The notes: generated from the sequence alone by a model not told the origin. DNA of 64,000 bases from Candidatus Hydrogenedentota bacterium (GCA_963745075.1 CAVUWV010000031.1:138251-202250), one strand, 5' to 3'. Positions 21,086 to 54,746 are shown, numbered from the stretch's first letter. Translations and numbers: made by a program.

Positions 21086-21697
21086 TCAGGGCTGGCGATG
21101 GGCCCGGCATCGCTCCGCGCGAACGATTGCGGCTAAGTCCTGAACGGCTTCGTCCAGGTGCTCGTTCACGATGACGTAGTCGTATTCGCGCCGGGCGGCG
21201 ATCTCCGCGTTTGCGTTGGCCAGACGCAATTCGATCACGTCCGGTTTATCCGTTCCGCGTTTCGTCAGGCGCCTTTCAAGTTCTTCCGGGGACGGCGCCA
21301 TGACGAATACGCTGACCATATCCAGTCCGCGGGCTTTCAAGTTGCGCATGCCCTGCACGTCCAACTCGAGCACCGTGTCTTCTCCGGAGGCAGTGAGGCG
21401 CTCCAGCTCATCTTGCAGCGTGCCGTACAGGTTCCCGTGAACTTCGGCCCACTCGACAAAGTCGCCCGTCGCGACCCGGCGCTCGAAGGCCTCCCGGTCC
21501 AGGAAGTAATAATCCACGCCTTCCACTTCACCGCTGCGTGGCGGCCGCGTCGTCGCAGAAACTGAATAGCCCAACCGGAGGTCCTTGTCGAAGACCCCTT
21601 TCAGGACGGTTCGTTTCCCGGCTCCCGAAGGGGCGGACAGCACGAAGACAATGCCACGCCGCGCGGGCCCGGCGGTATTTTCTTGCGAGGGACTCAC
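21086..21697 (-). CDS. gmk: Guanylate kinase
   Basis: P-loop 'VLSAPSGAGKRTV', 'YSVSATTRPPRSGEVEGVDYYF', 'EWAEVHGNLYGT'. Confidence 0.96.
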   Translation of the reverse strand: MSPSQENTAGPARRGIVFVLSAPSGAGKRTVLKGVFDKDLRLGYSVSATTRPPRSGEVEGVDYYFLDREAFERRVATGDFVEWAEVHGNLYGTLQDELERLTASGEDTVLELDVQGMRNLKARGLDMVSVFVMAPSPEELERRLTKRGTDKPDVIELRLANANAEIAARREYDYVIVNEHLDEAVQDLAAIVRAERCRAHRQP

Positions 21698-21706
21698 CGC
21701 TGCCGC

Positions 21707-22585
21707 TCACTCGATGTTTTGAATCTGCTCGCGGATCTTCTCCAACTCGGCTTTCAGATCCAGCACTTCTTTGGCAACGTTAGCGTCGCGCGTCTTGACG
21801 CCCAAGGTATTCACCTCGCGCTGAATCTCCTGGCTGAGAAAATCCAGGCGCCGGCCGATGGAGTCCTTCGACGAAAGGATTTCCTCCATGTGCTCGAGGT
21901 GGGTTTTGAAGCGCACCACTTCTTCGGTCACGTCACTCTTCTCGGCCATGAGCGCCACTTCGATGGCGATCCGTTCCTCGGTCAACCCGGCTTCCACGTT
22001 CAATTCATGGATGCGCGTGCGCAGACGGGTTTCGTAGGCCTCGTTCAATTCCGGCAGTCGCTCCTCGATAGAGGAAAGCGTCCCGCGCATGGACGCCAGC
22101 CGGCCTCGGATATCGTCTTCGAGGGCTTTCCCTTCGGTGCTGCGCATGGCGTCGAGCTTTTCCAGCGCGGCTTCGAGCACACCGACAAGCGTCGACTCGA
22201 CGGCGTCGAGATCCTCTTCCGAGTCTTCCTGAAAGATTACGCCTTCCATCTGGACCAGCACATTGAGCGAAAGCGTTTCAAACGTGCCCAGTATGGCACT
22301 AAGTTGTTTTGCTGCTTCCAGATACTGGTTCGCCAACGCCTGGTCGAAACGGATGGCCCGATTGGATGACTCTCCCCGGCGCCGGTTTACGGTAACGTTG
22401 ATCTTTCCCCGCGCGATGTGTTTTCGAATGGTCTGTTTTATAACCGGGTCCAGCGCCGACCATGCGGGGGGCATCCGCAGGTTACAGTCCAGGTACCGGC
22501 CATTTACGGAACTTAACTCGACGGTAAGCATCTGTCCGTCGAATTCTCCCGTGGCCTTGCCGAAGCCGGTCATACTTCGTGACAT
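21707..22585 (-). CDS. yicC: YicC-family stress-induced protein (endoribonuclease YicC-like)
   Basis: 'MTGFGKA' N-terminus, 'SDVTEEVVRFKTHLEHM', 'QEIQREVNTLGVK'; 292 aa, upstream of gmk as in many bacteria. Confidence 0.9.
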   Translation of the reverse strand: MSRSMTGFGKATGEFDGQMLTVELSSVNGRYLDCNLRMPPAWSALDPVIKQTIRKHIARGKINVTVNRRRGESSNRAIRFDQALANQYLEAAKQLSAILGTFETLSLNVLVQMEGVIFQEDSEEDLDAVESTLVGVLEAALEKLDAMRSTEGKALEDDIRGRLASMRGTLSSIEERLPELNEAYETRLRTRIHELNVEAGLTEERIAIEVALMAEKSDVTEEVVRFKTHLEHMEEILSSKDSIGRRLDFLSQEIQREVNTLGVKTRDANVAKEVLDLKAELEKIREQIQNIE

Positions 22586-46241: not shown

Positions 46242-46466
46242 TCAATAGCCCAGGCGGTTGCGCTCGGGCCGGAAGATGACCCAAAGTAGCAGCCCGATCG
46301 GCCAACTGAAGAATGCGACCAGGATGGCGACCAGACATCCCGGCTTTCCCCGCGCGTTCGCGTCGCCGTAACACCAGACGACGCTCCAGATGTATAGCAC
46401 GAAGATCCCCAGGTACAGGATAATGAACGGCACGGCGAGAAAAGGTGCAAGGCTGTGAGAATCCAT
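46242..46466 (-). CDS. Small two-TM membrane protein, paralog 1 (WSVxW..GDA..RGKPGCLV...SWP..LL.W..FRPER family)
   Basis: ATG 46466 is preceded by AAGGGGA. 74 aa. Shares an extended motif with the next gene. Confidence 0.65.
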   Translation of the reverse strand: MDSHSLAPFLAVPFIILYLGIFVLYIWSVVWCYGDANARGKPGCLVAILVAFFSWPIGLLLWVIFRPERNRLGY

Positions 46467-46538
46467 TCGTATCCCCTTAGTGATTCGTGGGCTGAATGAT
46501 AGCAAGACCGGCGCGCAATTGCCCGATTCCGGATTCCG

Positions 46539-46748
46539 CTAGCGCCATTGCCTGCGTTCCGGCCGAAAGACGATCCACATCAAGAGGCTCACCGGCCAAC
46601 TGATCAAGCCGACAAACGCGCCCACAAGACACCCCGGTTTGCCCCGGCGCTCGGCATCCCCCATCGCCCACGTCACGCTCCATGCCCAAAGGCCGAATCC
46701 GATCAGAATGATGATGCACTGCAGCATGATGGGCAGTTCATTCTTCAC
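46539..46748 (-). CDS. Small two-TM membrane protein, paralog 2
   Basis: GTG 46748 is preceded by GAAGGAG. 69 aa: 'WSVTWAMGDAERRGKPGCLVGAFVGLISWPVSLLMWIVFRPER'. Confidence 0.65.
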   Translation of the reverse strand: MKNELPIMLQCIIILIGFGLWAWSVTWAMGDAERRGKPGCLVGAFVGLISWPVSLLMWIVFRPERRQWR

Positions 46749-47039
46749 GGGAAATCTCCTTCACAAAGAATCAGCCCCTCTCTAAGCATTGTGCCTCTGC
46801 CGGATTTGTTCACTCAAGGCATTTGTCTATCTAAGCTCGAGTACTGAATCGCTTCACTTACGAGGTTGTCGACGATGAATTCGACGCCGTCGATGTTGCG
46901 AGGTTTGCACGACAAAGAAAGTCTTGTCACAAAACGAAATGTGCGTTAATATCGAAAACTAAACCTGATTTGTTTTCGGCACGGGGGTGTGGGCCGGCTA
47001 CGGATTAAGGATGGCGGGGCAATCATTGGGGGAATCATC

Positions 47040-48059
47040 ATGTCTAAACTGTCTTGCGGGTTGTTATGTAACATCACGTTTTACGGCATGGCTTGTCTTG
47101 CTGGGGGCAAAGCCCTGGCCCAGCAGGTGTTCTGGACTGACTGGGGCACCACCAAGGTTCAGGCGGGCAACGTTGATGGCTCCGGTTCCCCAACCGACCT
47201 CTTCGATAGCTCCGATGGGCTGAACGTCCCCGACGGCATTGCCGTCGACGTGGCGGGCGGTAAGGTGTACTGGACCGACATGAGCGCGAGCAAGGTTCAA
47301 GTGGGAAACCTGGACGGCTCCGGTTCCCCAACCGACCTCTTCAATTCCTCCGATGGGCTCAGCGCCCCCAACGACATTGCCCTGGACATTGAGGGGAACA
47401 AGGTCTACTGGACTGATTTGAGCATCAACACAGTTCAGGTGGGCAACCTGGACGGCTCCGGTTCCCCTGCAGTTCTCTTCGATAGCTCCGATGGGCTTGC
47501 CAATCCCATGGGTATCGCCTTGGACGTCGCGGGCGGCAAGGTCTACTGGACCGATTCTTACGCCAGCAAGGTTCAGGTGGGCAACCTGGATGGATCAGGT
47601 TCTCCAACGGACCTCTTCGATAGCTCTGATGGGCTTAGCGGCCCATGCTTTATCGCCTTGGACGTCGCTGGAGGCAAGGTCTACTGGACGGACGCCATCA
47701 CCCGCAAAGTTCAGGCGGGAAACCTGGACGGGTCCGGTTCTCCAACGGACCTTTACGATATCACCGATCTGCTTGACTTTCCCTGCGGCATCGCGGTGGA
47801 CGTGGCGGGCGGCAAGGTGTACTGGACCGACTCCGACACCCGCATGATTCAGGTGGGTAACCTCGATGGGTCCGGTTTCCCAACCGCGCTCTTCGACATT
47901 TCCGATGGCCTTAGCGACCCCATCGGCATCGCCTTGGGTTCGGGCGCGGCCCCACCGTCCGTCCCCGCGTCAAGCCGGGGAATGCTCTCGTTGACGGTTC
48001 TGGTCTTGGCGCTCTGCGCCGTGATCGCGGTATATCGTCTACGCGCGCGCCGGGTTTAG
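47040..48059 (+). CDS. Six-bladed YWTD (LDL-receptor class B-like) beta-propeller protein with a C-terminal hydrophobic/Arg-rich anchor
   Basis: Signal 'MSKLSCGLLCNITFYGMACLAGGKALA'. Six ~42-aa units 'GGKVYWTD...KVQVGNLDGSGSPTDLFDSSDGLS.P.GIALDVA' (one FWTD, five YWTD), encoded by ~126-bp tandem DNA repeats. Tail 'MLSLTVLVLALCAVIAVYRLRARRV'. Confidence 0.88.
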   Translation: MSKLSCGLLCNITFYGMACLAGGKALAQQVFWTDWGTTKVQAGNVDGSGSPTDLFDSSDGLNVPDGIAVDVAGGKVYWTDMSASKVQVGNLDGSGSPTDLFNSSDGLSAPNDIALDIEGNKVYWTDLSINTVQVGNLDGSGSPAVLFDSSDGLANPMGIALDVAGGKVYWTDSYASKVQVGNLDGSGSPTDLFDSSDGLSGPCFIALDVAGGKVYWTDAITRKVQAGNLDGSGSPTDLYDITDLLDFPCGIAVDVAGGKVYWTDSDTRMIQVGNLDGSGFPTALFDISDGLSDPIGIALGSGAAPPSVPASSRGMLSLTVLVLALCAVIAVYRLRARRV

Positions 48060-48209: not shown

Positions 48210-48599
48210 CTACCACGTTTCGAGCGACAGGCCTTCCACTTCCGTGAAATGCGCATCGCGGGCCACGAGCGTCAGGTCGTTCTGAAATGCCTGGGCCGCA
48301 ATCCAAATGTCGTTCTCGGGGATCGGTCGGCCCTTTTGTCGCAGTCGCTCTTTCACTTCACCATAGCGCCGGGCAGTCTCTGTGTCGCATCCCAAGACGA
48401 CGTTACGCGCCGCGAAATCATCTATGCGTTCCGTGTTGTCTGCCACTCTCGTCGACTTTTTTGCTCCGTAATACAGTTCGCCAAGGACCACGCTGGAGAC
48501 AAACAACTCCCCCGCTCCCCGAACTCGGTCTTTCACCGCCCCTTCGCCGGCAAACAGTGCAATAACAATGTTGGTATCCAACAGGTATCTACCATTCAT
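48210..48599 (-). CDS. vapC: Type II toxin VapC (PIN domain)
   Basis: 'YLLDTNIVIAL', 'VVLGELYYG', 'NDIWIAAQA', 'LVARDAHF'; 129 aa. The start overlaps the upstream antitoxin stop. Confidence 0.9.
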   Translation of the reverse strand: MNGRYLLDTNIVIALFAGEGAVKDRVRGAGELFVSSVVLGELYYGAKKSTRVADNTERIDDFAARNVVLGCDTETARRYGEVKERLRQKGRPIPENDIWIAAQAFQNDLTLVARDAHFTEVEGLSLETW

Positions 48600-48837
48600 T
48601 CACGTCGACCTGTTCGCAGCCTTCCTCAATTGCCTGTTGCATCAAGTGTAGGTCCTGTCGTGAAATCGTACCGGCAAACTCTACTAACTGCTGTCCGGGT
48701 ACCCCCCGGCGCTGTTCGGACCGCAGCGTCTCCACATACGCCAAGACTTGCCGTTGCAGGTCTTCCGGAAGAGCGTCGAGTTGCTCAATCACTTTACTCC
48801 GAATTGCACTGTTCATTTTGCTGTTCCTGTTTCCCAA
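48589..48837 (-). CDS. VapB-type antitoxin (DUF2281-like N-terminus)
   Basis: 'VIEQLDALPEDLQRQVLAYVETL...CEQVDVNEW'. 75-82 aa (ATG 48816 or 48837). Overlaps vapC by 11 nt. Confidence 0.75.
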   Translation of the reverse strand: MGNRNSKMNSAIRSKVIEQLDALPEDLQRQVLAYVETLRSEQRRGVPGQQLVEFAGTISRQDLHLMQQAIEEGCEQVDVNEW

Positions 48838-48932
48838 TATCGCGCGTGCCCGGTCGATGAAATGCGCTCAAACCATCACTCGTAGTATATCATCGAATCC
48901 CGAAATCAGGGGCACAATACTCTATTATTCGG

Positions 48933-49178
48933 TCAAAACATCCGCCTATCCAAACTCCTATCTTGGATCGCTTCGCTGACGTGGTTGTCGGCGATGGATT
49001 CGGCGCCGTCGAGATCGGCGAGGGTGCGGGCGACGCGGAGGACTTTATCGTAGGCGCGGGCGCTGAAACCGAGCTGGTTGATGGCTTGTTCGAGGAGGGC
49101 GTTGGCGCTGTCGGCGGGGGACACAGCCCGGTGCCGGACTGCCCGTGTATCAATCGGCCACATGCACTCCACCCCCAT
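48933..49178 (-). pseudogene. Orphan 3'-terminal fragment of a comM/yifB (Mg-chelatase-like) gene
   Basis: Encodes '...[60 protein letters not shown]', nearly identical to the C-terminus of the full comM at 53210. No upstream ATPase domain. Confidence 0.85.
48965..49116. repeat. 152-bp direct repeat, copy A (pairs with 53242-53393)
   Basis: By-eye alignment shows 5 mismatches in 152 nt against copy B. Weaker similarity extends to ~48910 / ~53189. Confidence 0.9.
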
Positions 49179-49199
49179 TCTTCCCTCGTCCTGATGCGA

Positions 49200-49604
49200 T
49201 TAGGCGTTTGCTTTCTTTCTGCGAGCGGCCGTGCTTCGCTTCTTCATTGGCGAATTGCCGGCAACCTTTCCGTGGACGGTTTTCAAGACGATCTGTGGTT
49301 CTTCGCGCGCTATCTGGAGCAGGCGGAGACTTGCGTTGCTGGGTTCGCGTCGTCCCTGTTCTCAACCCTGCACGGTTTTCGGAGAAACATTGAGTGCGGC
49401 CGCAAATACTCCTTGCGACATTCTCAATTTGGCCCGGATTTCCGTCACCTCTTTGGCGCCCATTGGGGGAGGCGGCGCGGGAACCTGCACAGTTACCAGG
49501 GACATCTTCTCGCCCCTGGAAAAGGCAATACTGTCTTCCAAACCCGCCATGATCATTTCAAAAACACTCATCTCGGATGGTTTCGGTATGCTCAATGTTA
49601 CCAT
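49200..49604 (-). pseudogene. XRE-type HTH antitoxin (COG2944/HigA-MqsA C-domain-like) with an in-frame TGA at the conserved Trp
   Basis: '...IRAKLRMSQGVFAAALNVSPKTVQG*EQGRREPSNASLRLLQIAREEPQIV...'. The family motif is TVQGWEQGRR. The frame stays open and homologous after the TGA (49362-49364) until TAA at 49200. Confidence 0.7.
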
Positions 49605-49643
49605 GCACTCCCCTCGTTGCCAGCGCGTTCAATCGTGTACGCA

Positions 49644-49814
49644 TCACTCCCCTGTCGGTCTATCTTCCTGTCCGACATTGTCTCGGATCTTCTTCCGAAG
49701 CGCCGCTTGTTCTTGTAGTAGCTCTTCCGTTCCGCGTTGCCAGTAGGCCAGCACTTCTTCCCTGGACATTCCGGCGGTCTCGCGCCGCACGCGCTCCGCG
49801 CCTTCGTGCATCAT
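49644..49814 (-). CDS. Small hypothetical ORF (56 aa), below the ORF-track length cutoff
   Basis: Own translation 'MMHEGAERVRRETAGMSREEVLAYWQRGTEELLQEQAALRKKIRDNVGQEDRPTGE'. Lies between the Zn-ribbon gene and the HTH gene on the same strand. Confidence 0.3.
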   Translation of the reverse strand: MMHEGAERVRRETAGMSREEVLAYWQRGTEELLQEQAALRKKIRDNVGQEDRPTGE

Positions 49815-49833
49815 TCCACGCAATCAAACGTTT

Positions 49834-50088
49834 TCACCGCGCGTGATGCCTCCGGAACGCCGGAGACTTCGCCTGGATCTTGCGCACCGCCTCGGGCCCG
49901 TATATCCGCTCGCCGCAGTCAGGGCATTCGTAGTACTCCACGTTCGACACCGAGTATTTCTGGCCGTCGAATTCGCGCGTGAGATTTCCGCGAATCTTCT
50001 TTAACCTCTTGCTGTCACAGTTTGGGCACGCTCGAAGTTTCACTTGGCTAGGTCCCTTCTTAGGGTGATAACATACTTGACGACTCAA
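49834..50088 (-). pseudogene. YgiT/MqsA-type zinc-ribbon antitoxin-like gene whose 5' end was replaced by the IS1595 end
   Basis: 'CPNCDSKRLKKIRGNLTREFDGQKYSVSNVEYYECPDCGERIYGPEAV' is a CxxC...CxxC ribbon. Codons 1-8 ('MSRQVCYH') and the first base of codon 9 are encoded by the IS inverted repeat. The pre-insertion start 'MAILPKKGPSQ' is at 52596 on the other side of the IS. Confidence 0.7.
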
Positions 50089-50208
50089 GGCTATTTCTTT
50101 GGGGTGGGTTGAGACTTGGGCTGGCTCTTAGCGTCCGGCAAGCTGTCTTTCGGTGTATTCAAGATTTTGCGCAATGCATCGGAGAACACTGATTGGCCTG
50201 ATGATGCG

Positions 50209-50766
50209 TCACTCTTCTTTGTCTTTCTCGGCTTCGTCATGGGGTGGTAATTCCGTTTGTTTGATTTCGCTGGATAGGCTATCGAAGAATTCTTTTGGGG
50301 TCAGAATGACAATCTGATTCGCAAGCTGTTTCTTACAAGACAGTATCTTCGTCTTTTTCCGCTTGCCTTTATTGTCACCGTCTCTAGTGATGAAAGCCTG
50401 AGCTTTCGCCTCTATTGCTGTGGCTAAATGAATAGCATCTGGAGTGTCGAGTGGAAATCGCTTGCGAAGTTTACCGGCTTCCGTAGCGGTGCGAGCATTT
50501 ACCGCGTGAACCGTAACAAATTCCTGCCTAAAGAATGATTCGATTAACGCCGTGGCATCTTCGTCGCTTAATGTCGTCTTTTCTTTTTCGGACGTTTTTA
50601 CCTTGATAATCTCGGCTCGTGCCAAAACCGAAAGCACTATTTTTAAATTACCAGCCTCTGCGTCCTTAATAATAGGCTCGACGTGATTGTAGAAATCCGG
50701 ATCTTTTATAAGCGAGTCCAGAACCACGCACGAATCTAGGTAGATGAGCTTAGAATCTTTCGCCAT
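50209..50766 (-). CDS. PIN-domain nuclease (185 aa) with a Lys-rich C-terminal extension; IS passenger gene
   Basis: 'LIYLDSCVVLD' (Asp), 'LARAEII' (Glu), 'DTPDAIHLATA' (Asp), 'AFITRDGD' (Asp). Overlaps the upstream ORF by 17 nt. Confidence 0.8.
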   Translation of the reverse strand: MAKDSKLIYLDSCVVLDSLIKDPDFYNHVEPIIKDAEAGNLKIVLSVLARAEIIKVKTSEKEKTTLSDEDATALIESFFRQEFVTVHAVNARTATEAGKLRKRFPLDTPDAIHLATAIEAKAQAFITRDGDNKGKRKKTKILSCKKQLANQIVILTPKEFFDSLSSEIKQTELPPHDEAEKDKEE

Positions 50767-51541
50767 TACGAATCTTTCTTACATAATCCACCGGGTCTAT
50801 ACCTCCCGTAATATCCATAGGCGGGGCTTCCGAAATCTTGAGGTACTTGGGATCTGGAATCTTGTCGAAATCGTGAATTTCGATTGCAACCGGTACGCCT
50901 TTGTCCGTAAATCGGGCTTTCCCGTAGACTTCAATTTGTTTATGTAAGAAACCTTCGCTAAGACGGTCGATTTCAGTTTCAGGAAAGATACATTTGATCT
51001 TTTGGCCCGTTGCTTCTTCTTGGATGACAAACTCGTGATGATCATCGGAAGTTCTTATATCATATAGCTTACCATTAAAGGTCGTTATCTCGCTATGATA
51101 GGCTTGGACTCTTAACTGCTGGATGTTCGCGTTCGCGTGCATGGTAGGTGTAACTTGCCCATATTCCGATGACTTAAATGCGACCGTATTTACGTCTTTG
51201 AGAACGCCTACAATCTTTTGAACCGAATCCAGATCGGTGTCACTGAAATTTTTCGGCAACTTCTTCTTTTGCTCGATAGATCTCAGTCCGCCCATATATT
51301 CGCCAATAACCTTCCTTGGGAACGCGGGTTTGCGTTTATTTTGTCCGGTAATCGTTAGCATAAGTGGGCTTTTCATGCTTATCTTAGTTATTGCCCATTC
51401 TACTTCTATGTCTTTGTCTATTGCCTCTGCGAGGCCACGAAGAACGCCGATAGTGTTATTCAACACTGTGACAAAGGAATTGATCGGAACGATACCGCGC
51501 TCCGCATCAATCACGATTGTCAACTCCGCTTTCTTTCGCAT
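50750..51541 (-). CDS. Uncharacterised 263-aa protein, partner of the PIN gene; IS passenger gene
   Basis: Long ORF starting 30 nt after the transposase stop. No motif I can assign. C-terminal tail 'PPMDITGGIDPVDYVRKIRNGERF' ends inside the PIN start region. Confidence 0.7.
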   Translation of the reverse strand: MRKKAELTIVIDAERGIVPINSFVTVLNNTIGVLRGLAEAIDKDIEVEWAITKISMKSPLMLTITGQNKRKPAFPRKVIGEYMGGLRSIEQKKKLPKNFSDTDLDSVQKIVGVLKDVNTVAFKSSEYGQVTPTMHANANIQQLRVQAYHSEITTFNGKLYDIRTSDDHHEFVIQEEATGQKIKCIFPETEIDRLSEGFLHKQIEVYGKARFTDKGVPVAIEIHDFDKIPDPKYLKISEAPPMDITGGIDPVDYVRKIRNGERF

Positions 51542-51571
51542 CTTCTACCTCTTTGAGGTTTAGGTAAAAAG

Positions 51572-52504
51572 TTATGAAACGCATTCTCCGATGAGACGAT
51601 CATACGTCAACCGCTTACCAGCGATGGACTTCATTGCCGCATCGAATCGTTCCCGATCTGTCGCTCTACGGTTATTATACCGGAAAGCCTGCTCATCAAG
51701 GTATCGAAAAAGATGGAACGGTTCGACAGAAACATAGGTGCCTTTGAGTCCACGCTTTAGCAAGCTCCAGAAATTCTCCAGGCCGTTCGTGTGGACATTG
51801 CCTTTAGCATACGCCTCTGCATGGTCAATCACATGATGGACGAAATCCCGGGACAATCCATTGTAGCTTGCCAGTGCATCCGTGTGGACTTTCGATCCCT
51901 TTTTCACATGCCTGTGCACAATCGGTTGCACCGTCTTTCTGCGCGGATTCGGGATTAGTTCGGTGCGTACTTCGCCGTGACGTTCCAGAATACCCATAAC
52001 GATGGTTTTACCAACCATACCAGTGCCTTTAGCCTTGCGTTTCCCCTTGTGCATATTGCGGGCTTTGCCGCCGATGTAGCTTTCATCTACCTCGACTTCG
52101 CCCGAGAGCTTCCCGCCATCGTATTCATCCTGTAAAACAAGGCGCAGACGATGCATCATAAACCACGCGGACTTCTGCGTAATTCCAAGGGCGCGGCTAA
52201 TTTCGTAAGAGGAAACGCCATTCTTAGCGCTCACGATAACCCATAACGCTACAAGCCACTTATCTAATCCAAGTGGACTATCCTCAAATACGGTATTATA
52301 ACGGACGCTGAAGGACTTCCTACAATCACGGCACTGGAACTTACGGCGTGTGGGAAGATAGGTCACTTTCCCTGAATCGCAATGGACGCAATGAACACCA
52401 TCAGGCCAGCGGTGCGCTATGAGTGTGTCATGACAGGTGTCGAAGTCGGAAAAGTACTTGACCGCTTCGATAAGAGTTTCTGGATACTTGACTTGGGAAT
52501 TCAT
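51572..52504 (-). CDS. IS1595-family (ISXO2-like) DDE transposase
   Basis: N-terminal zinc ribbon 'HCVHCDSGKVTYLPTRRKFQCRDCRKSFS'. DDE_Tnp_IS1595 'VEVDESYIGGK', 'KTIVMGILERHGEV', 'VHTDALASYNGL', 'HTNGLENFWSLLKRGLKGTY', 'YLDEQAFRYNNR'. Confidence 0.93.
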   Translation of the reverse strand: MNSQVKYPETLIEAVKYFSDFDTCHDTLIAHRWPDGVHCVHCDSGKVTYLPTRRKFQCRDCRKSFSVRYNTVFEDSPLGLDKWLVALWVIVSAKNGVSSYEISRALGITQKSAWFMMHRLRLVLQDEYDGGKLSGEVEVDESYIGGKARNMHKGKRKAKGTGMVGKTIVMGILERHGEVRTELIPNPRRKTVQPIVHRHVKKGSKVHTDALASYNGLSRDFVHHVIDHAEAYAKGNVHTNGLENFWSLLKRGLKGTYVSVEPFHLFRYLDEQAFRYNNRRATDRERFDAAMKSIAGKRLTYDRLIGECVS

Positions 52505-52520
52505 TGGGTTTAATCTCCCT

Positions 52521-52910
52521 CTAATCTAAACCCATTATATCATGAAAAGTATGAGTCGTCAAGTATGTTATTGCCCTTCTTAGGCAGTATCGCCATCTCG
52601 TCTTGCCGTCCGCGCATTTGACGATGTCTTTTGCAACGTCTTGCGAATCAAGACTTGAAATATCCAATTCAAGGTCATCACAGACGGCGCGGAAGGCCTT
52701 GTCCGCCTCTTGCGGTAGCAAAACGGCGGTTACCGGGACATATTCTCCGCCACGGGTCGTTATCTCAAGGCACCCGCCGGTTTTCCCTGGCGATTGTAAT
52801 CTTCCCGTCAATTGCCGAAACCTGCAAAGTCTGGATACACATTCACGCCATGACCTCTCGTCCATATTGTTCAATTCTATCAAGAATCGTCTGGAGTGCA
52901 GCCTTGACAC
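52521..52910 (-). pseudogene. Hypothetical gene (possible toxin partner of the Zn-ribbon gene) whose 3' end was replaced by the IS end
   Basis: The last 17 codons ('AITYLTTHTFHDIMGLD') are encoded by the IS right end. Joining across the TSD restores '...WRYCLRRDLAK*', overlapping the original Zn-ribbon start. The 5' end is uncertain and overlaps the preceding gene. Confidence 0.45.
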
Positions 52911-53148
52911 AATCGTCGTCGAGTCGGTTCACGATCAGGACAGATGAAGCAACGACGAACTCTTGTTCTTTGAGTATATCGGCAAGATATGCCTTCGTAT
53001 AAACGGAGAACGCGTAGGTATTCAGGAAATTGTCCTGAGACGAGTTCTCATCACCAACCTCGACGTACATTTCCGTTGTCGCGTATAGAGGATTGCATGG
53101 TGAATCATTCGGGTATTGTAGATAATAGAACGCCGTTATCTTACGCAC
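52843..53148 (-). CDS. Small acidic hypothetical protein (101 aa), immunity-protein-like
   Basis: GTG 53148 follows AAGGGGA. 'VRKITAFYYLQYPNDSPCNPLYATTEMYVEVGDENSSQDNFLNTYAFSVYTKAYLADIL...LIVNRLDDDCVKAALQTILDRIEQYG' loosely resembles polymorphic-toxin immunity proteins (Imm8-type layout). The long track ORF (to 53538) is antisense-frame read-through of comM. Confidence 0.4.
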   Translation of the reverse strand: MRKITAFYYLQYPNDSPCNPLYATTEMYVEVGDENSSQDNFLNTYAFSVYTKAYLADILKEQEFVVASSVLIVNRLDDDCVKAALQTILDRIEQYGREVMA

Positions 53149-53209
53149 TTCAATCCCCTTTCCGAGGTGGGCATACAGAAAATAGTGGACACAATACTCA
53201 ATCGTTCCG

Positions 53210-54746
53210 TCAAAACATCTGCCTGTCCAGACTCCGGTACTGGATCGCTTCGCTGACGTGGTTGTCGGCAATGGATTCGGCGCCGTCGAGGTCGGCGAGG
53301 GTTCGGGCGACGCGGAGGACTTTGTCGTAGGCGCGGGCGCTGAAGCCGAGCTGGTTGATGGCTTGTTCGAGGAGGGCGTTGGCGCTGTCGGCGATGACGC
53401 AGTGGTCGCGGATAGCTTTCGAGTCGAGGTGGGCGTTGCAGGTGTACGCGCCGTCGTAGCGGGCCCGCTGCCGGTCGCGGGCGGCTTGCACCTCGGCGCG
53501 GACTTCCGCGCTGGTGGGTCCGCTGGGCCGCCGGTCAATCAATTCCTCGAAACTCAGCGGGGGCACGTCGATGTGGATGTCGATGCGGTCGAGCAAGGGC
53601 CCGGAGAGACGCGCCATGTAGCGTTGCACCTCGCCGACGCTGCACCGGCATTGGCGTTTTGGATCGGTGCGGCAGCCGCAGGGGCAGGGGTTCATCGCGA
53701 CGACGAGCATGAACCGGCTCGGGAAGGTGACGGAATACATGGCCCGGCGAATGTGGACCAGCCCTTCTTCGAGGGGTTGGCGGAGGACTTCCAGGGCGCT
53801 ACGGTTGAACTCGGGCAACTCGTCGAGGAACAGGACGCCGTGGTGGGCGAGACTGACTTCTCCGGGCGTGGGTTGTTGCCCTCCCCCGCCGCCGCTGATG
53901 GAGACGGTGGTCGCGGTGTGGTGCGGCGAACGGAAGGGCCGCCGCACGATGAGGTCGCCTTTCTCCTGGACGCCGTTTGCGACGCTGTAGATGCGGGTCG
54001 TTTCGAGGGCCTCTTCGAAGCTCATGGTGGGCAGAATTCCCGGGAGCCGCGAGGCGAGCATGGTCTTGCCGGTTCCCGGCGGGCCGATCATGAGGAGGTT
54101 GTGCCCGCCCGCCGCGGCCACGGTCAGTGCGCGTTTGACGTGGGCCTGTCCCTTGACCTCCGTAAGGTCCGGGATGTCGTGGTGGGCCTTATCGATGACC
54201 GCCTGCATATCCGTACGGAAGGGCAGAATCTCTTGCGCGTCTGCCATGAAGCCGACGGCGTCGGTCAGGGTCGCGGCGGGGATGACTTCGATGCCGGGCA
54301 CGACGCCGGCTTCCTCCGCATTCGCTTCGGGCAGGACAATCCCGCGCAGGCCCTGTTCGCGCGTGGCGATAGCCATAGACAGGGCGCCGGAAACCGGCCG
54401 TAGGGACCCGTCGAGGGCCAACTCGCCCGCGAGAACGTAGTCATTAAACCGCGGTCCGGCGATCTGTTCGGAGGCCGGCGAGCATCCCCAAGGCAATGGG
54501 CAAGTCGAGGGCGCTGCCTTCCTTGCGAATATCGGCGGGCGCGAGATTGATGACCGTGATTCCGCGCGGATACCGGAACCCGGAGTTCTTGAGGGCCGAG
54601 CCGACGCGTTCCTTGCCTTCCTTGACGGCCGCATCGGGCAAGCCGACGAGGTAGTACTGGTTGCTGCCGGGGTGGTTGTCGACCTCGATGGCAAGGGGAT
54701 ATCCGTCGATTCCGATAACGGCGCATGATTGGACCCGGGCAAGCAT
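53210..54746 (-). pseudogene. comM: Mg-chelatase-like ATPase ComM/YifB, interrupted by one extra nucleotide (~54476)
   Basis: N-terminus '[22 protein letters not shown]...[12 protein letters not shown]' (ATG 54746) is in one frame. '[23 protein letters not shown]...[13 protein letters not shown]...LFLDELPEF...AMNPCPCG...' is in the +1 frame and runs to stop 53210. Confidence 0.88.
53242..53393. repeat. 152-bp direct repeat, copy B (inside the functional comM 3' end)
   Basis: See copy A (48965-49116). Confidence 0.9.

Follow-up and report, generated by a model that had tools for sequence, protein, structure and literature searches.

Stacked displaced comM ends at a gene-turnover site in a Candidatus Hydrogenedentota genome

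The 3′ end of comM, the ComM/YifB Mg-chelatase-like AAA+ gene, is present three times in a row within a 64,000-nucleotide stretch of DNA from a Candidatus Hydrogenedentota bacterium (the window), and the copies are separated by cassettes of accessory genes. Along the comM strand, the order is comM with its end B, cassette 2, end A, cassette 1 (vapBC and a YWTD gene), end C, and then a conserved flank. The identity of the ends drops with distance from the gene, from 100% (B) to 91% (A) and 76% (C). This is a familiar type of genomic-island scar in an unfamiliar phylum. To our knowledge, Hydrogenedentota is a phylum known from metagenomes only. The earlier note had offered repeated cassette turnover as one reading of the locus, and the three stacked, distance-decayed ends are consistent with it.

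The comM gene lies on the minus strand at 53210..54746. It carries one extra C at 54480 compared with five relatives, which puts the reading frame out of register from about residue 90 on; its body is uninterrupted and its sequence is host-like over the whole length, with no mosaic break at 53393 or 53686. In the same test, an anomaly was seen in the 3′ part of the comM of G001, another genome of the genus. Copy B (53180..53393, minus strand) spans the final 61 codons of comM with their stop (53210-53212) and about 30 nt of UTR downstream; it is the real end of the gene, as first noted. Copy A (48903..49116, minus strand) is an orphan fragment that has a stop of its own, as had also been recognized; it holds 60 codons encoding the last 60 residues of comM, the stop, and about 30 nt of UTR, and it matches Pfam Mg_chelatase_C (E 2.9e-19). 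The two form a direct repeat of 214 nt with 91% identity (blastn E 1.6e-82), and they are the only copies at that identity level in the genome. The 152-nt core (48965-49116 and 53242-53393) has the five mismatches counted before, all of which are synonymous. Weaker similarity had been reported on both sides of this core. It exists on one side, where the repeat crosses the stop codon and continues about 30 nt into the UTR (the same UTR is found in G001:C371), and it is lacking upstream of 49116 and 53393, where local alignment was compared with shuffled sequences (p 0.08 and 0.76). The 5′ boundary of copy A is therefore sharp, at 49116/49117.

Of the coding differences between copies A and B, 10 are synonymous and 2 are non-synonymous (pS 0.244, pN 0.014), the latter giving two substitutions in the protein, Y to D and Q to R. 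This pattern departs from neutral decay (binomial P 1.6e-5), and the pS value falls within the range seen between species of the genus (0.14-0.29). Because the divergence is almost purely synonymous and at the between-species level, each end once belonged to a working comM in a different lineage; judged from this substitution pattern, A and B diverged inside functional genes of separate lineages. Such divergence excludes a recent copy made in situ that then decayed neutrally, and it is one reason why a local, trivial origin (a tandem duplication in situ followed by gene gain, or an assembly artefact from a mixed population) is very improbable. An artefact has to be considered because the genome is a MAG, because G001 has comM in two allelic forms, each on a small contig of its own, and because the A-side junction at 49116/49117 lies outside the independent Logan contigs from ERR11594398, which match window positions 53234-49851 (100% identity) and 49031-45631 (99.88%). 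However, a chimera formed within the repeat would connect vapBC with the body of comM and would not yield the observed junction between non-comM DNA and codon -61, the genome is in just 36 contigs, and the independent assembly reproduces the B junction, both junctions of the IS element described below, and the stretch from A through vapBC and the YWTD gene to C. Exact look-ups of proteins matched ERR11594398 alone, which represents the same population, and look-ups of products across or beside the A junction gave no match. No closer relative besides this population was found in the sequence collections. An exact 38-nt comM pattern, searched for in genome and metagenome contigs, occurred only in the known genus, in contigs similar to G018, and in short sludge contigs.

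Copy C (46808..46906, minus strand) is an older, more decayed third end with about 31 codons and a stop. Its identity to B is 76% across 100 nt (E 3.9e-14), and it translates as NIDGVEFIVDNLVSEAIQYSSLDRQMP followed by the stop. Extension of this scar upstream to codon -61 was not significant (p 0.30). Beyond it lie two small membrane-protein genes (46242..46748, minus strand) that form the conserved far flank and are syntenic in G003 and G005, while the content and length of the stretch between comM and these genes vary among the three genomes. The cargo has a G+C content of 0.43-0.55, versus 0.60-0.68 in the flanks. Between C and A, cassette 1 contains the vapBC pair (48210..48837, minus strand; the VapC PIN toxin at 48210-48599 and VapB at 48589-48837) and, as its second gene, a gene for a secreted YWTD-repeat beta-propeller protein (46989..48059, plus strand), for which no counterpart was found in other genomes of the genus. 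The vapBC homologues in G003 and G005 are at other loci. The earlier note had taken vapBC for the original flank and had predicted an empty site in which a single comM end is followed directly by vapBC. Scar C makes the vapBC region an earlier cassette, and the predicted site was not found, as no relative has comM followed by vapBC.

The insert between A and B had been described as an island of 4.3 kb. It is instead a cassette of about 1.55 kb that was later enlarged by a 2.5-kb IS insertion. Cassette 2 carries antitoxin-like and immunity-like genes, and all of the genes listed earlier are present, except that the supposed 56-aa ORF is a 59-aa ORF with a TTG start. In order from comM, and all on the minus strand, they are as follows. 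The immunity-like gene (52846..53184, about 113 aa, G+C 0.46-0.51) resembles Pfam Imm8 at E 3.6e-4, below the cut-off, and is absent at the corresponding locus in G003. A small ORF, of which the 5′ part (52576..52910) was cut off by the IS, could be restored in silico and has an intact homologue in G003; its 3′ end once extended into the beginning of the zinc-finger gene, and profile searches gave no family match. The YgiT/MqsA-type zinc-finger gene (49834..50063; TIGR03831 38.6 bits, above the cut-off; Pfam MqsA_antitoxin E 1.1e-5) corresponds to the N-terminal half of an MqsA-like antitoxin and had its start displaced by the IS. The 59-aa ORF (49644..49823) is conserved in G003 and has no family match. 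Finally, the HTH gene (49200..49604), of the MqsA C-terminal or NadS type, has an in-frame TGA at 49362-49364; with this TGA read as W, it matches HTH_3 (E 1.5e-7), NadS (E 1.8e-11), and the MqsA family (E 1.4e-9).

The IS element (50064..52575, minus strand) belongs to the IS1595 family, as shown by a DDE_Tnp_IS1595 transposase with an N-terminal zinc ribbon (51572-52504; PF12762 E 4e-44, PF12760 E 1.9e-10), terminal inverted repeats of 24-26 nt, and an 8-bp target duplication, CTTCTTAG, at 50056-50063 and 52576-52583. Its passengers are a gene for a 263-aa protein (50750-51541) and a PIN protein gene (50209-50766). The genome has the element only once, an identical sequence is present in Logan contig L074, and G003 has the empty site; the insertion is later than cassette 2. 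In terms of function, the antitoxin fragments, the immunity-like gene, and vapBC are typical hotspot content and need not form one joint system.

The zinc-finger module is also found directly behind comM in G003 and in G001:C738, with no scar beyond it, and its divergence among the three genomes (74-85%) is like that of core genes. Given its scarless position in the other two, either side of copy A may be the newer arrival, and A together with cassette 1 may be the imported block. This bears on a serious rival to any recombinase-based explanation, a homology-anchored illegitimate insertion, which we consider somewhat unlikely. Here, chromosomal DNA taken up from another species of the genus would have recombined through homology on one side, in comM or in the far flank, and would have been joined illegitimately on the other, within a comM 3′ end. 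A join anywhere in the last comM codons would leave an orphan end of arbitrary length, and comM would stay intact because the other partner brings a full end. The module shared by the three genomes fits this model, as do the ordinary host-type character of both A and B among the alleles of the genus, boundaries that carry neither similarity nor a hairpin, and the place of comM in the natural-transformation machinery. The model is weakened because two rare events stacked at one site, along with the scars in several other genera, call for a hotspot that it does not explain by itself. Furthermore, the variable part of the window showed no scar derived from the gene on the opposite flank, and the transformability of Hydrogenedentota is an assumption.

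Recurrence of such scars was assessed across the order. Extra comM C-terminal fragments were found in at least 11 of 124 genomes, and extra fragments of the rho C-terminus, used as the control, in none of 118; this also speaks against illegitimate insertion, though rho adjoins no variable locus. The gene fpg was unusable as a control (present in 11 of 133 genomes). Other short scars occur at G018 and L066, G097, G105, and L063, all without a recombinase. The 5′ boundaries of short scars lie at about -66, -61, -53, -43, -31, and -21 codons depending on the genome. No single attachment site accounts for boundaries that differ in this way, and both this variation and the lack of recombinases favor illegitimate joining. 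Together with the stacked ends and a stretch that varies in every genome, these fragments support comM as an insertion hotspot in this lineage. A genome-wide scan for nearby direct repeats returned mostly paralogues and IS pieces, with no clear second gene-end scar.

The earlier note had proposed a decayed island that lost its integrase. No trace of an integrase was found, and the cassette of about 1.55 kb is too short to have held a decayed one. PF00589 and PF07508 have no match in or near the locus, and no tyrosine integrase lies near comM in this genome or in G003, G021, G018, and G031. The window has a single tyrosine recombinase, a Xer-like gene about 30 kb from the locus, and the only PF07508 match in the genome is on contig C11. 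A search of the genome for an integrase-bearing relative with the same att-like sequence, as had been recommended, yielded no further copy. An integron cassette array is not supported: attC hairpins are absent (folding at the cassette borders was no stronger than in shuffled sequence, z -1.1 to +1.5), and so is an IntI integrase. No Tn7-type genes (TnsABC, TniQ/TnsD) are among the ORFs of the locus; TniQ also has no match in this genome or in four relatives, a result of little weight as control genomes were equally silent. The AbaR islands of Acinetobacter, to which the locus had been likened, are Tn7-like transposons with tns genes that interrupt comM and leave a 5-bp target duplication. They share the target with the present locus, but they do not duplicate the gene end, and neither the interruption, the 5-bp duplication, nor the tns genes were seen here.

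Large serine recombinases are a different matter because comM is a documented target: among large serine recombinases predicted to be site-specific, 12.4% target Mg-chelatase/comM homologues (PMC10083194), and sr1WO of phage WO integrates into this gene (PMC9203015). Within the genus, such a recombinase in G003 (L040 1853-3373) abuts a break in comM, and in another relative, G120, one abuts a break at the Walker A codons; both are proteins with Resolvase, Recombinase, and zinc-ribbon domains. The sites used by relatives, NP|CPCG and Walker A, coincide with the boundary of neither A nor C. These elements split comM without duplicating its end, whereas the genome studied here has an intact body and a 214-nt duplication; direct insertion of this kind does not fit. 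It is quite improbable that A and C are eroded scars of NP|CPCG elements, starting as 477-nt orphans whose 5′ parts were later deleted together with the HTH end of the element. In favor of erosion, such elements with 160-aa orphans occur in G003, G021, G047, G049, G105, and G121, where a conserved XRE gene marks the right end of every element, internally deleted orphans exist in G107 and G075, and G105:C606 contains mixed arrays of long and short orphans. On the other hand, in those elements the recombinase gene directly adjoins the 5′ portion of comM, and they bring along a complete but divergent comM copy (about 67% identity), while the comM studied here is host-like throughout. The XRE right-end gene is also absent near A, and the HTH gene beside A has an intact 3′ end and another strand pattern.

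The tentatively preferred reading, which we put slightly short of an even chance, is tandem accretion of gene-end-restoring cassettes whose recombinase is now absent. At least two successive insertions would have occurred behind comM, each supplying a working replacement end and shifting the resident end, with everything behind it, downstream. Joining would have been site-specific, through recombination of comM with an attachment site resembling its end. The model is icd of E. coli K-12, where the cryptic prophage e14 and phage 21 replace the last 100-200 nt with their own functional version; the displaced end, the icdC pseudogene, remains as an orphan just beyond the insert, and the two icd ends differ mainly at synonymous sites. 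The present locus resembles these in the replaced gene end, the orphaned resident end, and the mostly synonymous differences, and it has the 3′-end repeat on both sides of the insert and a regenerated comM end. However, e14 and phage 21 are 15-40 kb long and encode a tyrosine integrase beside their attachment site, whereas here there is no such integrase, the cassettes measure 1.5-2 kb, and three ends are stacked. The recombinase may have been lost, or may have been provided in trans by comM-targeting elements, which are common in the order.

Systems without a resident recombinase offer further parallels. In staphylococci, SCC and pseudo-SCC elements insert at the 3′ end of rlmH (orfX) by large serine recombinases acting in trans, at a fixed site with repeats of 15-18 bp. 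As in these, cassette arrays lie behind a conserved gene end, some without a recombinase, and comM is a target favored by such recombinases; in contrast, the repeats here are 100-214 nt long, the boundaries vary, and there is no Ccr-like gene. The decay of elements to CIMEs (cis-mobilisable elements), followed by accretion, has been described (PMC5704250). Like the CIMEs of the ICESt1/ICESt3 family (PMC5704250), the present units lack recombination genes, are flanked by att-type repeats of the target end, and stand in tandem with the oldest farthest. CIMEs have known integrase-bearing ICEs that share their att and mobilise them, while no cognate recombinase element was found at the boundaries seen here (codon -61 or -31). 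Against tandem accretion, then, stand the lack of a recombinase gene and of room for one, an att-like sequence without a further copy, boundaries that vary and differ from the recombinase sites of relatives, the lack of an empty site, and the scarless zinc-finger module in G003 and G001:C738, which fits vertical descent.

In summary, a gene-turnover hotspot is documented in Hydrogenedentota. The gene comM, a known target of large serine recombinases, also gathers small recombinase-less cassettes with displaced gene ends. The stacked scars give the relative time order of the acquisitions, and their synonymous-only divergence shows exchange between species-level lineages. It is improbable that recombinase-less cassettes are actively swapped at the comM end across distant phyla by a shared trans-acting or recombinase-independent mechanism that is addressed by a duplicate of the comM end; if so, comM would serve accessory genes in general as a landing pad, with a role comparable to the integron platform. 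Should a single cause underlie the same pattern in other phyla, accessory and defence-type genes would have a general entry point in comM.

The 3' end of comM, a gene whose stop lies at 53210-53212 on the minus strand of the window (G000:C31:138251-202250), is duplicated in the G000 assembly, a 6.8-Mb MAG in 36 contigs. The direct repeat claimed in an earlier note is real: 48903-49116 (copy A) and 53180-53393 (copy B) are 91% identical over 214 nt (E 1.6e-82), and at this level only these two copies are present in the whole G000 genome. As the note had also claimed, it is copy B that terminates comM, and copy A is an orphan with its own stop. The 60 C-terminal residues of A differ from those of B by two substitutions, and A matches Pfam Mg_chelatase_C (E 2.9e-19). 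The repeat also covers about 30 nt of 3' UTR beyond the stop, which a comM contig of G001, another genome of the genus, has in common with it (G001:C371). Its upstream edge is sharp at 49116/53393, and no similarity was found past either repeat boundary. At 54480 (window 54470-54490), in a GCCGGCC site with no long homopolymer, the G000 comM carries a single additional C that all five of the genus's comM genes lack. This puts the first ~90 codons out of frame with the rest of the gene, and the extra C is either a real, recent inactivation of comM or a sequencing error.

The 60 codons compared between A and B show 10 synonymous and 2 non-synonymous changes (pS 0.244, pN 0.014), a pattern that argues against neutral decay (binomial P 1.6e-5). 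The pS value is within the range observed between species of the genus (0.14-0.29), which means that A did not arise by recent local copying followed by decay. Both ends evolved as parts of functional comM genes in separate species-level lineages, and A gained only a few changes after its displacement; the insert carried either a foreign end B or A. The same synonymous divergence contradicts a local duplication or assembly artefact, which we regard as very improbable. This reading is further contradicted by Logan contigs, an independent assembly of run ERR11594398, that reproduce 53234-49851 and 49031-45631, with the A junction at 49116/49117 lying outside both. Two full comM alleles are present in G001 on separate small contigs (L035 = G001:C371 and L037 = G001:C738), with a pS of 0.22 in the last 60 codons, and in each of them the region between roughly the CPCG codons and the stop has diverged unusually far from the G003-G005 group of the genus. 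This suggests that G001 is a mixed MAG or that the 3' part of comM was replaced.

A search with the right flank matched the comM ends of relatives, and a sensitive self-search identified a third comM end, copy C, at 46808-46906, which shares 76% identity with B over 100 nt (E 3.9e-14) and reads NIDGVEFIVDNLVSEAIQYSSLDRQMP*. Along the comM strand, comM with end B is followed by an Imm8-like gene (a sub-threshold match, E 3.6e-4), a small ORF with no family match that overlaps a YgiT-type zinc-finger gene (TIGR03831, 38.6 bits), a 59-aa ORF, an HTH gene containing an in-frame TGA, end A, vapBC with a YWTD propeller gene, end C, and two genes for small membrane proteins, a flank conserved in G003 and G005. 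Identity to B drops with distance from comM, from 91% for A to 76% for C. Because end C lies beyond it, the vapBC region belongs to an earlier cassette and did not, as had been supposed, adjoin comM originally. The locus shows at least two events, each of which left a displaced comM end, and DNA from other lineages of the genus took part.

In terms of the contents between B and A, accessory genes do lie between the repeats, but the island that had been described as 4.3 kb measured only ~1.55 kb before the arrival of an IS1595-family element with three genes (50064-52575; inverted repeats at 50062-50087 and 52552-52577). Deletion of the element in silico restored two overlapping genes matching those of G003, which holds the uninterrupted target. 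The insertion is recent, given its perfect 8-bp target duplication (CTTCTTAG), its single copy in the G000 genome and the empty site in G003. The passenger genes encode a 263-aa protein that matches no family, together with a 185-aa PIN protein. The HTH gene is of the MqsA-C/NadS type provided that the TGA (49362-49364) is read through; with Trp at that codon, the translation has matches to HTH_3 and NadS. In G003 the corresponding gene is cut short at a different position, so that decay seems to be under way in both genomes. No recognisable toxin was found between B and A except the PIN gene carried by the IS. The G+C content of the cargo (0.43-0.55) is lower than that of the flanks (0.60-0.68).

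The predicted empty site, with comM directly followed by vapBC, was not found among the genus relatives examined (G001, G003 and G005; the G004 contig ends there), and the vapBC homologues of G005 and G003 are at other loci. The small ORF and zinc-finger module lies directly behind comM in G003 and G001:C738, with no IS and no scar beyond, and G005 has other genes there; outside the genus, the module was not found adjoining comM. The distance separating comM from the mini-membrane genes varies, at 3.7 kb for G005, 5.8 kb for G003 and 6.4 kb for G000, and the gene content differs in each. The stretch behind comM is a hypervariable locus. Homology-anchored illegitimate insertion of related-species DNA, the main rival to site-specific integration, accounts for the module common to G000, G003 and G001, and also for the host-type alleles, the varied boundaries and the missing recombinase. 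Alone, it leaves the repeated use of comM unexplained. We regard it as a serious but less likely alternative.

Extra fragments matching the last 85 ComM residues were found in at least 11 of 124 genomes of the order and extra fragments matching the last 85 Rho residues in 0 of 118, counts that are given as a contrast with no formal test because the genomes are related and not independent. Contigs end within the last 70-90 comM codons in several short-read MAGs (G089:C98/C4, G127:C426/C28 and G108:C179); this is the expected effect of a duplicated comM end, and the scar count is thus probably an underestimate.

Part of the comM fragment excess is due to large serine recombinases. The comM gene of G003 is interrupted at its NP|CPCG codons (window 53685/6) by an insert of ~72 kb. 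The break is abutted by the gene for a 506-aa protein with Resolvase, Recombinase and zinc-ribbon domains, at G003:C4:9853-11373, and a second such protein lies within the insert. Other genomes of the order, G021, G047, G049, G105 and G121, show the NP|CPCG break too, and the right end of the element there bears a conserved XRE gene. Elements of this type carry their own complete, divergent comM (~67% nucleotide identity) near the right end (G003:C4:8766-82001, stretches L038-L043; also G021:C38/C65, G121:C53 and G049:C692). The second recombinase of G003 and an inner orphan of the foreign comM indicate a nested insertion of one element into another's comM copy. Erosion of longer orphans left by NP|CPCG-type elements fits some relatives but misfits G000, where comM is host-like throughout, and is an improbable source of its scars. 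In G120, a 657-aa serine recombinase abuts a comM break at the Walker A codons, together with phage genes; along this stretch (L069, G120:C111:144426-147299), phage-like genes precede the recombinase, which adjoins a comM fragment starting at the Walker A motif GPPGTGKT. The break is at the same place in G056 and G070. The Walker A site is a second recombinase target within comM in the order. These elements agree with the literature: 12.4% of predicted site-specific large serine recombinases have Mg-chelatase/comM homologues as their targets (PMC10083194), and such a homologue is also the integration site of phage WO sr1WO (PMC9203015).

A second class consists of short scars that follow an intact comM and have no recombinase with them. 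Counted back from the comM end, they are located at codons -61 (A) and -31 (C) in G000, -21 in G018 and metagenome contig L066, about -43 in G097, and -66 and -53 in G105, with another on sludge contig L063, and their boundaries differ among one another. Outside the window, a 249-nt direct repeat of 94.8% identity (G000:C31:18702-18950 and 21597-21845) has one copy within a 1006-aa polymerase-like ORF and the other 2.9 kb downstream, past a 267-aa gene; this may be another displaced gene fragment.

Our preferred reading, a tentative one, is site-specific integration on the gene-end-restoring principle of e14/icd, which is taken as the model for the comM scars. Integration would restore the comM end and displace the resident end, successive units would accrete behind comM, and the recombinase would later be lost, or be supplied in trans. 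Such CIME-type accretion has been described (PMC5704250) and is likened here to the stacked comM ends of G000. Site-specific integration is favored because the scars are comM-specific, are stacked in decay order and keep the stop and UTR, because the upstream edge is sharp, and because comM is demonstrably a recombinase target in the order. Counting against it, there is no recombinase at the G000 comM locus, no cognate element with the same boundaries as A or C was found, the boundaries vary between genomes, and the cassettes are tiny. The original view of a comM-end island stands as regards the duplication, to which a third end is added, and falls as regards the vapBC flank and the simple 4.3-kb unit. 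The locus is an accreted, recombinase-less island scar at a gene 3' end, which is a known kind.
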